NCBI GenBank assembly: GCA_029263315.1
Contig: JAJCXR010000024.1
Span: 124,526 to 188,525 of the forward strand
DNA from: Acidobacteriota bacterium
GTDB lineage: Bacteria; Acidobacteriota; Thermoanaerobaculia; Multivoradales; J023
Length of the DNA stretch: 64,000 nucleotides
Direction of reading: 5' to 3'
The notes below the pieces were generated by a model. That model saw only the letters and a program-made list of their open reading frames with translations, was not told where the DNA came from and ran no database searches. Of the stretch, positions 26,216-31,547 are shown piece by piece (within the stretch, counting starts at the first letter, position 1; each line of letters begins with the position of its first letter). The translations under genes were made by a program, and so were the position numbers.

Positions 26216-26716
26216 CGAAATGCATCGTGTCCATCTTTGCCGCCTCCCTTTGCCGCCTCCATCGCACGGACAGATTTCTCAATCAAGGCGGTCCCCTGAG
26301 AAACTGACCCGACGAGTCTATCGTCATGAGTGTAGCGTCTATCCGTGGATCGAGAAAGTCCGCGCCCCTAACAGTCTGTGGTGAGTGAGTGAACGGTGTA
26401 ACCTACTATGCCGAGCCCGTTACCGGGCGCCCTCTCCGACAAACCCTCGAGTCTGCGATCATCGAGTTGGCGACAGGGAAGGCAGCGTCCGATGCAGGGG
26501 AGGCGAGCCCTTTATGCTCGAGACCAATGGCCGTTGTATCGATCGGCGTATCGATCGGCAAAAGCACTGCCCATAAACCTCAAGTGTTTTCTAGGAAAAT
26601 AGTTAAAGTGAAACTAGAGGTTTAAGGTCGGTGATCGGTCTCCTGACAAGGTCCGATCTCCTTTCTCAGGACCACCATCCTTGACCCAAACTCAACCGCG
26701 TCGGAGAATAAGGATC

Positions 26717-27220
26717 ATGAAAGACCCCAAGGACACACTCATCGAAATGAAGGTACGGAAGCTGATGGTCGACACAACGACCCATGTGCCGATCCTTATT
26801 CTCGCCAATGACGACGGCTCGAAGTTCTTGCCCATCTGGATCGGTCTCTTCGAAGCCAATGCCATCGCAACTTCCTTGGAGGGTAAAGGCAGCGCTCGTC
26901 CCATGACCCATGACTTGGCCGTCCATCTCATGGAGTCCTTAGATGGCTATCTACAACGAATCGTGATCAACGACCTCGAGGAGAGCACCTTTTACGCGCA
27001 GCTGATTATCGAGCAGGGTGGGGTAGAGGTCAGCCTCGACTCGCGACCCAGTGACGCCATTGCGATCGCCTTGCGAGCCAGTGTCCCGATTTTGGTCGCA
27101 GAAAAAGTGTTAGAACAAGCTACGAAGGAAGATCTCTCCAAACAGCTCAATGATGATGAAGAGCTCAAAAAGTGGTTGGAAGATGTGGATCCGGAGGATC
27201 TGGGCAAATATACGATGTAG
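26717..27220 (+). CDS. Bifunctional nuclease (BFN/DUF151) family protein
   Basis: PILILANDDGSKFLPIWIGLFEANAIA...PMTHDL. The start was chosen at MKDPKD. Confidence 0.7.
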   Translation: MKDPKDTLIEMKVRKLMVDTTTHVPILILANDDGSKFLPIWIGLFEANAIATSLEGKGSARPMTHDLAVHLMESLDGYLQRIVINDLEESTFYAQLIIEQGGVEVSLDSRPSDAIAIALRASVPILVAEKVLEQATKEDLSKQLNDDEELKKWLEDVDPEDLGKYTM

Positions 27221-27222
27221 AT

Positions 27223-27271
27223 TTCCGAAGGTAGGTTTCCGGATGTAAGCTTCCGGATGTAGGGTTCCGGC
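27223..27271. repeat. Tandem 14-bp repeat (TTCCGGATGTARG-like, about 3.3 copies) just after the BFN stop
   Basis: tttccgaaggtagg / tttccggatgtaag / cttccggatgtagg / gttccgg. Confidence 0.7.
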
Positions 27272-27439
27272 GGCTTAATTGGCTGTCTGGCCGCTGCGCT
27301 TCATATTGGGAGAGTCACCACATAATATCTTCGCGCCCATCGAACAGCGCAAGGGCTAACCACCTTCGTAACGCCTTGGCCCACTCTGAACGGCAAACAA
27401 CAAACCACTCAGAGGTCTCTCTTCAGGGCCGCATCTAAT

Positions 27440-28345
27440 TCCTTCTCTCCCGATCTCCCTTTGGTTCCTTGGCGCGAAGGAGCGCCGGTTCCTATGGCCC
27501 CGCGGCCAGGATTGAAACCCATCGATAGCGATCTGCAACTTGATAGCCCCGCACTGGCCGGAAGGTGGGCTAGTTCAAGAATGTCGGCGCGCCGACATGC
27601 ACTACCATCCCAGCTAGAGAAAATGCGGAGTGTGACCCCGGAGGGTAGGGTCCCAACGCCCGCGCAACGTCGGCGCAGTACCGCCCGATGTCGGCGCGCC
27701 GACATCGACCTTCTTGGCAGGTTTCCACAACATTCCAGTTCGACAGATAGTCAGCTAGCGTCCACCCATTGTGTCGAAATCGGTCCTAGCGGTAGGCCCC
27801 AGCTGTCTGAGTCGCAGGGCCAGGGGGACGGTATGAACCCCGAATATCAATGGGTCTAGAGCGAAACGTCAGCTTGGGGCGATTTTCCGGAAGCCCCGCA
27901 CAGCCGAAAGGCCCCCGCCCCGCATCGCCCCTCGGATGGGATCCAGCTATCGTCCGATGTCGGCGCGCCGACATAGATCCGTCCGTTCTTCCGAAATCGG
28001 TAACGGGAGGTCCTTCGATCGAGCACGGAAGGAGCGCTATCTGAGAGCTCTCTGAGCGCTGTCTGAGCCCCAAGGCCAGTCTGCTGGCGCCCAATGTCGG
28101 CGCGCCGACATCGATCCGTTCCTCCGAAATCGGTGCCAACGAGAGGCCCTTGGCGGGTCCCCCTTCGAGCGAGCTCGGACGGAGCGCTGTCTGAGCCCCC
28201 AGGGCCATGGGACCAGATGGAACTATGAATTGGTTTAGATGGACACGTCAGCTTTGAGGCGAGTTTGTGGAATCCGCACGCGAACGAAGGGCTCCGGCCC
28301 CGCATCGTTGTCTCGCACGGGAACCAGCTCGGATAGGCCATGACC
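27440..28345. repeat. Non-coding block of nested degenerate repeats carrying four copies of a perfect 18-bp palindrome
   Basis: ATGTCGGCGCGCCGACAT at 27581-27598, 27688-27705, 27957-27974 and 28094-28111. Flanking modules recur (ATCCGTYCYTCCGAAATCGGT, GAGCGCTGTCTGAGCCCC, GGCYCCSGCCCCGCATCG). Spacing is irregular at 107, 269 and 137 bp. Confidence 0.8.
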
Positions 28346-28468
28346 GCCATATCTTGGGTGTAGGAAGATGCAAACAACGCCATATGGCGTCTGAATGCAG
28401 ATTTCTCGATAAGAAACGCGCTCTAGTATTGACCCCGTCAATGGCATGTAAGTAGACTTCACCTGCCC

Positions 28469-29227
28469 ATGATCATCGCAATCACCAATCAAAAAGGTGG
28501 GGTCGGTAAGACCACCACGGCCATCAACTTGTCGGCGGCTATGGCATCGAAGGGTTCTCGGACTCTATTGATCGATGTTGATCCGCAAGGCAATAGCTCC
28601 ATGTCGTACGTCGACCCCCATGCAGTCAAGCAGTCCATGTACGATGCCTTGACCGAGGACTCAGTTCATCTCTCCGACATCATTCAAGAGTCGGAGAAGG
28701 TGCCGAACCTCTCGGTTGCCCCAGCAACCATTTCGTTGGCTAAGCTGGAATCGGCCCTGTTGGGCGAGTTGGATAGCCATTTCCGCCTCAAGGACGAGCT
28801 CGACAAGATCGCGGACGACTTCGACTACATCATCATCGATACACCTCCAACGCTGGGCATCATCACCGTCAATGCGTTGGTGGCGGCCACACATGTATTG
28901 ATCCCGATCCAGTCCAGTTATTTTGCCCTTGAAGGGACGGATGATCTCCTGGAGACCATCGACAAAATCAAGGTTCGGGCCAATCCAAACTTGCAGATCC
29001 TCGGTGCCGTCATCACGCTGTACGACAAGAGGACGATTCTGGCTCGAGATATTCGGGAACAGATCGACCAAGTATTTGGCGACAAGCTCTTCGAGACCAC
29101 CATCAGCAAGAGCGTGCGGCTAGAAGAAAGTCCGGCCTACAAGGAATCGATCTTTTCGTTTGCCCCTCAATCCAGCGGTGCGTACGAGTACTACAAGTTG
29201 TCGGAGGAGGTTCTGAGTCGTGTCTAG
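28469..29227 (+). CDS. parA: ParA/Soj-family partition ATPase
   Basis: Deviant Walker A KGGVGKTTTAINL. Lower GC than surroundings. Confidence 0.9.
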   Translation: MIIAITNQKGGVGKTTTAINLSAAMASKGSRTLLIDVDPQGNSSMSYVDPHAVKQSMYDALTEDSVHLSDIIQESEKVPNLSVAPATISLAKLESALLGELDSHFRLKDELDKIADDFDYIIIDTPPTLGIITVNALVAATHVLIPIQSSYFALEGTDDLLETIDKIKVRANPNLQILGAVITLYDKRTILARDIREQIDQVFGDKLFETTISKSVRLEESPAYKESIFSFAPQSSGAYEYYKLSEEVLSRV

Positions 29228-30125
29228 AAGCGCCACTGCCAGCAAGAAACGCGGCTTGCCCGAAAGGGTCCGCATGCGTGCGACGAGCCATTTTGTCGAT
29301 GAGCTCACGAGCCGCAACGAAGAAGAAGCCATTGGGCGAATGATTCCTATTTCTTCTATTGAGCCGGATCCTTCCCAGCCCAGAACATCGATGGGTGACC
29401 TGTCCGAGCTCGCCAAGTCCATCCGCGACAAGGGGGTCCTGGAGCCCATTCTGGTGCGTCCCTTGGAGAGGGCGCTGCCGTCGGGGGCCCAATTTCTCAT
29501 CATCAGCGGTGAGCGGCGTTACCGGGCTTCCATGGAAGCCGGCCTATCGGAAGTGCCCGCCATCGAGATGCCGGTCTCCGTCGAAGAAGCCCTCGAGATT
29601 GCTCTCATCGAGAATCTCCAACGCAAGGACCTGACGCCCTTCGAAGAGGCGGAAGGTTATAAGGCGCTGGCGGAGCGCTTTGACTACACCCATGAGCAGA
29701 TTTCTGAGGCGGTGGGGAAGTCCCGTACCGTCGTTACGGAGAGCTTTGCCCTCCTGCAGATGTCACGCCGGGTACGTGAGGCGGCGGACGCCTTGGGCAT
29801 TCATACCAAGTCCTTGCTGCTGGAAGTGCTGAAGTGCGATACCGAGGATGAGATGATTTCATTGCTCGAGGAAGTCAACCTACATGGGTTGAGCCGTGAC
29901 GATCTACGTCGCCAGAAACGCGGCGCTAAGACGTCGGGCGGTGCCACCAAGAGACGTCCCTTTGTTTTCAATTTCAAGGCCCCCGACAAGAGCTACAGCC
30001 TGGCGTTGAAGTTTCGGCAGACGGATGTCAGCAAAGGCGAGTTGATCACGGCATTGGAGCGGATTCTCTTGGATCTCAAGGCCGAGAATCTAGACGCAGC
30101 CGCGGCCGAGAAGCCGACCCACTAG
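29220..30125 (+). CDS. parB: ParB/Spo0J-family partition protein
   Basis: ParB N-terminal domain (ILVRPL, GERRYRA), HTH and C-terminal dimerisation region. The GTG start overlaps the parA stop. Confidence 0.85.
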   Translation: MSRSATASKKRGLPERVRMRATSHFVDELTSRNEEEAIGRMIPISSIEPDPSQPRTSMGDLSELAKSIRDKGVLEPILVRPLERALPSGAQFLIISGERRYRASMEAGLSEVPAIEMPVSVEEALEIALIENLQRKDLTPFEEAEGYKALAERFDYTHEQISEAVGKSRTVVTESFALLQMSRRVREAADALGIHTKSLLLEVLKCDTEDEMISLLEEVNLHGLSRDDLRRQKRGAKTSGGATKRRPFVFNFKAPDKSYSLALKFRQTDVSKGELITALERILLDLKAENLDAAAAEKPTH

Positions 30126-30173
30126 CAGCCTGAGCAACGCTCCACGGGGCATCCATGAGCCGCCAGCCTGAGA

Positions 30174-30223
30174 GGGTTTGGCGGCTTTGTTGTTTCTAGG
30201 GTTTGGCGGCTTTGTTGTTTCTA
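30174..30223. repeat. Perfect tandem duplication, 2 x 25 bp (GGGTTTGGCGGCTTTGTTGTTTCTA)
   Basis: Direct reading of the sequence in the parB-methyltransferase intergenic region. Confidence 0.9.
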
Positions 30224-30449
30224 GGATGGGGATAACCCGTTCAAGGGTGTTGCTCTTCATGGTCTGAGGTTAACATAATGTATCTTATCGGACCTTGGAT
30301 ATGGCGTGAATATACGCCGTGAAGTGGCCCCGTGGAACCCGCCATCGAGGCTCAATCCTCCGTGCTAGCATCTCCCTTCGCAGCTTGCTGCCACTCTCGA
30401 GCTCCCACCGGTAGCCGAATCAAGACGGCGGCAACCACTTGCCAAGACG

Positions 30450-31547
30450 ATGTCAACCAAGACGTCAACTAAGACGATGTCAACCACGATGTCTGCTCAG
30501 CCATCTGCCCAAGACCGCCGCATCCTGGCGCTGTTGCTACATCTGCAGCGCTGGCCCTTCGACGCCATCACCGGCGACGACTTACGGCTCGACCACCGAA
30601 CCCTCGAGTCTCAGGCGCGGCAGGTCTTTCCCGAGTTGCCGCAGGATGCGTGGCCCTCCGACTGGCAAGGAGCTCTGCTGACGCTCTGCGAGCAAAACTG
30701 GTTGCACGGCCTGCCCGGTGACCCCGCGGCGACCTTTGGGCTGACTCCCGCCGGACGTGAGCTGGCACGGGGGTTCCACCGTGAGCTCATGGCAAAGGGC
30801 TTCGATGAGTTGCTGGTGGATGCCCTCGACAGCCCCGCCTACGCCTCCTTTTGTCGGCGATCCATGGGACTCGACATCGGGCATTTCAGCCCGGTGGACG
30901 CCATCCAGGTATCTTTGCTGGCCTCCATGCTGAAGGGCCTGGACCGATCGAAGCCGCCGGGCCGGCCGTTCCGTTGGCTGGACTTGGGCTGTGGCGCCGG
31001 AAACATGACGGCCTGGCTGGCCCGCCAACTCGGCACGGCGGTGGCCTATGGCGTCGACCTCGCGTCCGAGGCCATCGCCGTGGGACGTCGTCGGCACGCC
31101 GACCTCGGGCAACGGCTGCATCTTCATGTGGCCGATGTGCACGATCTGCGTGTTTTGCCCGCCGCCTCCTTCGACGCCTTGGTGGCGGTTGACGTGCTGG
31201 CGTTTGTCGATGAACCTGAAATCGCCTTGCGGCGTTGGCTCCGCCTGCTGGCCCCTGGGGGACGAGCCCTGGTCCTGGGTTCGTCGAGGGGCGGCACGCA
31301 GAAAGCGCGATTCGAGGTTGGGTTGCTCGGAAGATACACCCCTCCCCCACTGGTGGTCGATTTGACCTCCCTCGATCGACATCTGTGGCGCTCACAGCGG
31401 CGGATTCTGGCGGTCATGGGCAAGGACTTCGAGGGCGAAGGTCGGCTTCCCCTCTACCGCCTGCTGTGCCAAGAGGCCCGGCGGTGTGGCCGATGGGCCG
31501 AAGCCGGGTCCACTCGGCGCACCTTGACGGTACTGCGGACTGTATAA
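30450..31547 (+). CDS. Class I SAM-dependent methyltransferase with an N-terminal helical domain
   Basis: Motif I LDLGCGAGNMT. The N-terminus MSTKTSTKTMSTTMS is encoded by a short tandem repeat, so the true start may be a downstream ATG. Confidence 0.7.
   Translation: MSTKTSTKTMSTTMSAQPSAQDRRILALLLHLQRWPFDAITGDDLRLDHRTLESQARQVFPELPQDAWPSDWQGALLTLCEQNWLHGLPGDPAATFGLTPAGRELARGFHRELMAKGFDELLVDALDSPAYASFCRRSMGLDIGHFSPVDAIQVSLLASMLKGLDRSKPPGRPFRWLDLGCGAGNMTAWLARQLGTAVAYGVDLASEAIAVGRRRHADLGQRLHLHVADVHDLRVLPAASFDALVAVDVLAFVDEPEIALRRWLRLLAPGGRALVLGSSRGGTQKARFEVGLLGRYTPPPLVVDLTSLDRHLWRSQRRILAVMGKDFEGEGRLPLYRLLCQEARRCGRWAEAGSTRRTLTVLRTV

Follow-up and report, generated by a model that had tools for sequence, protein, structure and literature searches.

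The 64-kb stretch of DNA analysed here (contig JAJCXR010000024.1), called the window below, is main-chromosome DNA of a Thermoanaerobaculia-type acidobacterium, and this report concerns a partition operon within it, parAB, together with an array of palindromes that precedes the operon and is considered here as its candidate centromere. The palindromes lie in a 1,248-bp spacer (27221-28468) between parA and an upstream gene encoding a bifunctional nuclease (BFN) domain, where the 18-mer ATGTCGGCGCGCCGACAT occurs in four exact copies starting at 27581, 27688, 27957 and 28094; a scan of the 64 kb returned no further match with up to three mismatches. Only 0.05 copies would be expected, none of 100 shuffles reached four, and the four sites are the longest perfect palindromes of the window. 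The first (27581-27598), third (27957-27974) and fourth (28094-28111) parS-like sites are exact 18-mers, and in the second the 18-mer at 27688-27705 is extended to a perfect palindrome of 22 bp (27686-27707). All share the 16-bp core TGTCGGCGCGCCGACA, which is kept in relatives. The sites are set at irregular intervals of 107, 269 and 137 bp, span 530 bp, and end 357 bp short of the parA start codon.

The first gene of the operon, parA (28469-29227, forward strand), encodes a Soj-type deviant Walker-A ATPase of 252 residues with the motif KGGVGKT and matches to Pfam AAA_31 (3.5e-59) and CbiA. The second, parB (29220-30125, forward strand), encodes a protein of 301 residues with the Pfam domains ParB_N and HTH_ParB, scoring 140.6 bits against TIGR00180, for which the cut-off is 58.45; on these matches, the parA/parB pair that a preliminary description of this DNA had placed beside the array is real. 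The window ParB carries a cytidine triphosphate (CTP) motif, GERRYRA, at residues 97-103, ENLQR at residues 131-135, and a recognition helix, GKSRTVVTESFALL, at residues 166-179 (nucleotides 29715-29756), which is followed by KSLLLE; the protein has no GHAR motif. A putative parA promoter runs from 28429 to 28458 on the forward strand (TTGACC, 18 nucleotides, TAGACT), with its -35 hexamer 317 bp from the fourth palindrome and its -10 hexamer ending 10 nucleotides before the ATG, which implies a near-leaderless parA mRNA. A separate 14-bp perfect palindrome, ACGCCATATGGCGT (28377-28390), stands about 40 bp 5' of the -35 hexamer and is not conserved in relatives.

The preliminary description had also set the four palindromes within degenerate repeat modules, and both the exact-match scan and an alignment of the modules agree with it. 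Sites 2 to 4 are carried by modules X (27677-27945), Y (27946-28082) and Z (28083-28340), which together occupy 27677-28340 on the forward strand, do not recur elsewhere in the window and are not conserved in relatives. Mean column identity between the modules is 63%, and the palindrome is 100% identical, a combination that points to a local duplication long ago, after which selection acted on the palindrome alone. The array appears to have grown by segmental duplication of site-bearing modules, and the unusual length of this spacer can be attributed to the same local duplication, with flanks that decayed around palindromes kept invariant. Such a clear segmental duplication might be taken to mean that the block is simply a recent, non-functional tandem duplication in which the palindrome has no selected role; the modules, however, have diverged to about 63-88% identity with all four 18-mers still perfect, and the 18-mer is conserved across a phylum, so that this explanation is exceedingly improbable.

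To place the array in context, six relatives were chosen by their ParB protein alone, from contigs encoding a ParB 65-84% identical to that of the window; the closest relative by ParB, P0002 (92% identity), lies outside this six-locus DNA comparison. The relatives share the gene order of the window, radical-SAM, BFN, parA, parB and LptFG, and all six have the palindrome in the spacer between the BFN gene and parA, in one to six copies. There is one spacer site in L129, two in each of L209 and L222, three exact sites 43-45 bp apart in L127, and five or six across about 800 bp in L125. The 83% relative, L124, has two spacer sites and three more upstream of the BFN gene at 2110, 2250 and 2316, and the array can thus straddle that gene. 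No other copies were found within 10 kb on either side of parB in the relatives' loci. Between the sites, the DNA of one genome bears no relation to that of another, and what is conserved in the spacer is only the core TGTCGGCGCGCCGACA and the promoter, CTTGACC-N17/18-TAGACT, an arrangement present in L124, L125, L127, L209 and L222 with either TAGACT or TAAACT as the second hexamer. The first palindrome of the relatives stands 12-25 nucleotides past the BFN stop codon; in the window some 360 bp of additional DNA free of sites (27221-27580) come first. The position of the BFN gene directly 5' of parAB, with the radical-SAM gene before it, is kept across several Acidobacteriota classes (L093, L124, L125, L127 and L222), and this conserved synteny indicates that the parAB locus is not an island.

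The distribution of the palindrome was then examined across GTDB, with one genome per species, the exact 18-mer as query and 8-kb blocks around each match. This returned at least 120 loci containing 126 sites, and about 97 of the loci listed are labelled Acidobacteriota, comprising Thermoanaerobaculia, Blastocatellia, Acidoferrales/Terriglobia, Vicinamibacteria, Holophagales and Chloracidobacterium among the matches listed, in which a genome has from one to five or more loci. The most frequent placement beside the operon is within parB itself, where 38 of the 126 sites listed share a single fixed place, around window residue 183-189, and always read in the frame xCRRADI. Seven sites lie up to about 340 bp downstream of parB, five lie 56-71 bp upstream of parA (L009 and L053, the latter two with partial parA only, included), and three lie 2.7-4.4 kb upstream of parA (L036, L093 and L119). 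One site, in Saccharopolyspora (L081), is 3.8 kb from a parAB of canonical type and was read as a chance match, and the remaining 72 have no parAB in the 8-kb block. Since 8 kb amounts to about 0.2% of a genome of 5 Mb, the association of the sites with parAB is not due to chance. The five genomes with a site upstream of parA encode the ParBs closest to that of the window among the matches listed (57-69% identity). In the window itself the in-gene site has been lost: the position where most other Acidobacteriota have the in-frame palindrome as CRRADI reads AADALGI (29781-29801, forward strand) and matches it at 5 of 18 bases. Where parB has no in-gene site, the residues here vary without constraint, and CRRADI is therefore conserved for its DNA and not for the protein. 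The 16-mer core gave 12 matches in viral contigs, which is background level, and none of these was near ParA or ParB.

Sites away from parAB have diverse housekeeping genes as neighbours, among them glyQ-recO, an amino-acid permease and an LD-carboxypeptidase, and their positions are syntenic among related genomes, a pattern that fits additional parS sites. These neighbours have no gene in common, and the idea of an operator for a dedicated regulon was dropped.

What the palindrome accompanies is more than an operon: it accompanies a particular form of ParB. Canonical ParBs from Thermus, Myxococcus and B. subtilis show GKxRSxVANxLRLL followed by GHARALL in alignments from the PDB, whereas the roughly 50 ParBs beside the palindrome among the matches listed all have G(K/R)xRxx(I/V)TE and none has GHAR(ALL). 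They include proteins from metagenome-assembled genomes (MAGs) of Binatia (L030) and Cloacimonadota (L023), and the Saccharopolyspora chance match, which is not beside parB, comes with the canonical helix, ITNTIRLL...GHARALL. In alignment A2 E174 is invariant and T173 nearly so. Of 80 ParB loci sampled without bias from metagenomes, 64 could be typed, 17 with a TE helix like that of the window (GKSRxxVTE, no GHAR) and 47 with the canonical xN helix (VAN..LRLL, GHAR), leaving 15 without a parsed helix motif and one with a TT helix. The core, with up to two mismatches allowed, was found at 7 of the 17 TE-type loci and at none of the 47 xN-type loci, and canonical parS at 0/17 and 24/47, respectively (Fisher p of 3e-5 for the core and 8e-5 for canonical parS). 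Site type thus co-varies with the type of the ParB recognition helix, and the two site types are mutually exclusive between TE and xN loci. Variant palindromes with the arms kept and different centres occur near TE-type parB genes at L139:3104 and 3139 (TGTCGGCATGCCGACA and TGTCGACGTGCCGACA) and at L143:3177 (ATGTCGACATGTCGACAT).

In Caulobacter ParB, R173 contacts guanine 1, and N178, G201 and R204 are further contact residues (PMC7383237). R169 of the window protein appears to be the equivalent of R173, retained along with the outer TGT/ACA bases of the site, and on a mapping taken from HMMER alignments E174, K197 and L200 would replace N178, G201 and R204, with the inner 10 bp of the palindrome differing from parS.

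The same evidence bears on the possibility that the palindromes are operators without a centromere role, bound either by ParB solely as an autorepressor or by an unrelated factor controlling parAB. The array does stand upstream of a conserved, sigma-70-like parA promoter, and the last site comes to within 10-35 bp of the -35 hexamer in L222 and L127. Most lineages, however, have the site inside parB or downstream of it, away from the promoter; the nearest site of the window is 317 bp off; the additional syntenic sites adjoin unrelated housekeeping genes with no shared regulon; and site type changes with the ParB helix. We consider a purely regulatory role very improbable.

The reading that we prefer, with considerable confidence, is that the four palindromes are parS sites bound by ParB, forming a chromosomal centromere array of a non-canonical sequence type. 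A parS-like centromere was among the proposals of the preliminary description, and comparison supports it strongly: the palindrome follows parAB phylum-wide, it is the sole conserved site in the relatives' spacers, and it co-varies with the ParB helix. Several features of a ParABS system are present, namely a perfect inverted repeat of about 16 bp, located in or beside an operon for ParA and a GERRxRA helix-turn-helix (HTH) ParB, with co-variation of site and helix; what is missing is a match to the consensus TGTTNCACGTGAAACA, and the site is accordingly filed as a sequence variant. That this is not canonical parS had been pointed out before, and the consensus is indeed not in the window with up to three mismatches, nor in any of 128 loci examined.

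Several observations temper the centromere reading. No dnaA gene or cluster of DnaA boxes lies in the 64 kb, the scan giving 7 unclustered boxes against 5 expected, on which count an origin of replication within the window was also rejected. In a 9.3-Mb circular relative parB is at 4.47 Mb, a coordinate that says nothing about distance from the origin, the start of the record being arbitrary. With 317 bp between the nearest site and the -35 hexamer a direct operator role is not evident in the window, and at 10 of the 17 TE-type loci the DNA up to about 4 kb from parB is free of sites; most of these siteless loci have GRARSSVTETLSL, looking Terriglobia-like. The 72 listed sites whose 8-kb block is without parAB belong here as well, as do several Acidoferrales-type genomes with three to five or more sites, some of them inside composite repeats. 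In one such composite, found in Acidoferrum/Acidoferrales-type MAGs (L003, L010, L017, L044, L061, L064, L068, L073, L079, L085, L086, L107, L114, L116 and L117), the palindrome abuts a second palindrome, TTAAAGTAnTACTTTAA (/GAAGG). A G6-TA-C6 hairpin, CAAAAACAGGGGGGTAnACCCCCCTGTTTTTG, is a recurrent neighbour in L005, L015, L020, L043, L048, L089, L091, L098, L104 and L109, and Rfam scans of three of them (L015, L020 and L048) gave no match. Finally, 8 of 88 non-genic sites carry 6-10 extra complementary, lineage-specific bases, against 0.02 expected, giving palindromes of 30-38 bp (L036:538, L119:4024, L093:6829, L096:7068, L095:853, L053:7352 and L031:7087), an example of such an extension being AAAAAGGGG-site-CCCCTTTTT. 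These extensions could reflect template-switch extension or a hairpin function and, together with the composite elements of some lineages, raise the prospect that the site may have a property related to hairpins or cruciforms.

Two side observations concern the composite element. Repeated (C)GTTCGAATG boxes often follow it, and it also turns up in SMAG bins that bear the names Dongiaceae, Baltobacteraceae, Limnocylindrales and Eisenbacteria but are possibly mis-binned (L027 has Acido-Lenti-1 RNA).

Composites and extensions of this kind lend some colour to the view that a selfish or structural repeat, with the 18-mer as its core, has accumulated in the spacer, whether an element like the repetitive extragenic palindromes (REP) or miniature inverted-repeat transposable elements (MITE), or a hairpin, for instance that of a bidirectional terminator. 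The window sites lie in repeated modules, many copies stand within recurring composite elements in the Acidoferrales-type MAGs, and non-genic sites prefer A-rich and T-rich flanks (AAA/TTT) in addition to the extensions just described. Against this, there are no copies elsewhere in the window or within 10 kb of the relatives' parB, the relatives share the palindrome alone and not the module flanks, and site positions are syntenic among related genomes; identity across classes and an in-frame position within parB are also a poor fit to terminators or mobile repeats, and no Rfam family matches. We regard a repeat of this sort as very unlikely, and the REP- or MITE-like element entertained in the preliminary description, for which dispersed copies in the window or conserved flanks in relatives might have spoken, found no support. 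Nor did the small-RNA locus suggested alongside it: Rfam searches at gathering and E-value thresholds gave no relevant match to known families, with no RNA family at the sites in the whole window, in the spacer (at the E-value threshold) or in 20 related loci.

If the palindromes are parS sites, the course of events can be sketched from established ParABS biology. The HTH helix GKSRTVVTESFALL would let dimers of the adjacent ParB recognise each palindrome, and the protein, which has an N-terminal GERRYRA CTP-binding motif, would close as a CTP clamp and slide onto flanking DNA. Four sites in 530 bp would then give one dense partition complex beside parAB, which the Soj-type ParA ATPase would move and from which SMC probably loads. 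Loading of ParB just upstream of the conserved parA promoter may also autoregulate parAB, although the distances suggest a weaker case for this in the window, with its 317-bp gap, than in L222 and L127, with 10-35 bp.

A broader proposal follows, towards which we lean with distinctly less assurance: that in Acidobacteriota the near-universal TGTTNCACGTGAAACA has given way to a chromosomal centromere reprogrammed wholesale, TGTCGGCGCGCCGACA, which is read by a ParB helix in which N has changed to E and the LRLL arginine and GHAR have been lost, with GKSR kept for the TGT contact. Some neighbours with the same helix, such as the Binatia (L030) and Cloacimonadota (L023) MAGs, may do likewise. This would apparently be a natural, undescribed orthogonal ParB/parS pair on the scale of a phylum; a literature search found neither the core sequence in print nor any discussion of parS in Acidobacteria/Acidobacteriota.

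Set beside known systems, the locus is closest in organization to the canonical chromosomal ParABS of B. subtilis (Spo0J), Caulobacter, Thermus and Myxococcus, which likewise combine a Soj-type ParA with an HTH ParB containing GERRxRA and a 16-bp perfectly palindromic parS, in or beside parAB and in several copies per genome. In B. subtilis one parS lies inside spo0J. The window system keeps the outer TGT/ACA bases and the GKSR motif of canonical ParB/parS, but its core matches TGTTNCACGTGAAACA at 6 of 16 bases and its inner 10 bp, CGGCGCGCCG, consist of G and C only. In its helix T-E takes the place of the canonical A/T-N, the LRLL arginine is lost, and KSxLL with a two-residue deletion stands in place of GHARALL. 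By comparison, the analogy with small Walker-A ParA systems that the preliminary description had drawn, in which arrayed repeats 5' of parA serve as the centromere, is loose: it led to the palindromes as plausible ParB-binding sites, but the system is of the chromosomal Soj/Spo0J type with an HTH ParB carrying a CTP motif, and not of the small plasmid type Ib.

Divergent sites are familiar from secondary replicons. Vibrio cholerae ParB2/parS2 and the c2, c3 and pBC replicons of Burkholderia cenocepacia have divergent palindromic parS sites of 16-18 bp with cognate HTH ParBs, often clustered by parAB. The window resembles them in that clustering and divergence; their pairs, however, discriminate between co-resident replicons, whereas the window site is on a main chromosome and its variant is lineage-wide. 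KorB-OB of plasmid RK2 offers a ParB-family, CTP-dependent clamp with a GC-centred palindrome that also regulates transcription, and KorB is among the PDB matches of the window ParB (8qa8, E = 1.9e-12). It is nonetheless a distant, plasmid-borne relative, and its operator, TTTAGCSGCTAAA, is different from the window site.

The nearest precedent for a change of specificity is Noc, a Firmicutes paralogue that coexists with ParB and whose specificity was switched by changes at a small number of positions, within the recognition helix or close to it (PMC7383237). Noc and its binding site (NBS) are likewise a ParB-family HTH protein of altered specificity and a palindrome. Noc has ATTTCCCGGGAAAT as its target, with sites scattered away from the terminus, while here the operon's only ParB appears to have been switched, phylum-wide. 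Identity with Noc-NBS was ruled out, as the window ParB scores 137 bits against the Noc model TIGR04285, below its cut-off of 315, and the site matches the NBS at 4 of 14 bases.

The system would be an ordinary ParABS in which the new part is a centromere sequence and a recognition helix reprogrammed across a lineage. Chromosomal parS has been described as highly conserved in a review (PMC7022226), and it is usually presented among the most conserved bacterial cis-elements; if the proposal is true, an ecologically dominant soil phylum uses a different site. This would explain the failure of consensus-based centromere searches in Acidobacteriota and would make it possible to annotate the origin regions and centromeres of their MAGs, which number in the thousands. 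It would also place the evolution of ParB specificity in the primary ParB and not in a paralogue, complementing the work on Noc (PMC7383237) and drawing attention to residues E174, K197 and L200, and it would supply an orthogonal ParB/parS pair for DNA-labelling tools like ParSite and mParSpot (PMC11798528, PMC11109969).

The surroundings of the array are those of ordinary chromosome DNA, with genes for PriA, LptC/A, RpoN, phosphotransferase-system (PTS) proteins, a MiaB-like protein, BFN, ParAB, LptFG, RadA, DnaB and MutS in the window. The lower-GC segment of the preliminary description is borne out as a slight dip, G+C being 0.589 in the spacer and 0.561 in parAB against 0.619 in the window, but the difference is only marginal. 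The BFN gene that bounds the spacer upstream (26681-27220, forward strand) matches the Pfam family BFN_dom at 5.1e-39. Within the spacer one public annotation calls a gene on the reverse strand (27856-28383), an orphan open reading frame of 175 residues that overlaps the repeat modules; it has no Pfam match, its sole match among 5.8 billion proteins is itself, and it is missing in relatives with spacers of 150-220 bp, which makes it most likely spurious.

The array had been judged not to be a clustered regularly interspaced short palindromic repeat (CRISPR) locus, and the irregular spacing of 107, 269 and 137 bp, with "spacers" that are themselves repeated, bears this out. A solitary CRISPR-DR9-like sequence, GTTCCTATGGCCCCGCGGCCAGGATTGAAAC, does occur at 27488-27518 (RF01322 match at 27479-27518, the only Rfam match in the spacer, 20.5 bits, E = 0.17, sub-threshold), with no second copy in the window. 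Three short tandem repeats are also present: a 14-nucleotide unit, GATGTAGGTTTCCG, in four tandem copies with 79% matches that starts on the BFN stop codon (27214-27270); a 25-bp unit, AGGGTTTGGCGGCTTTGTTGTTTCT, in two perfect tandem copies about 50 bp past the parB stop codon (30173-30222); and degenerate tandem repeats of 12-15 (27) nucleotides (AAGACGATGTCAACC...) at 30442-30497, over the annotated start of a methyltransferase gene (30450-31547).

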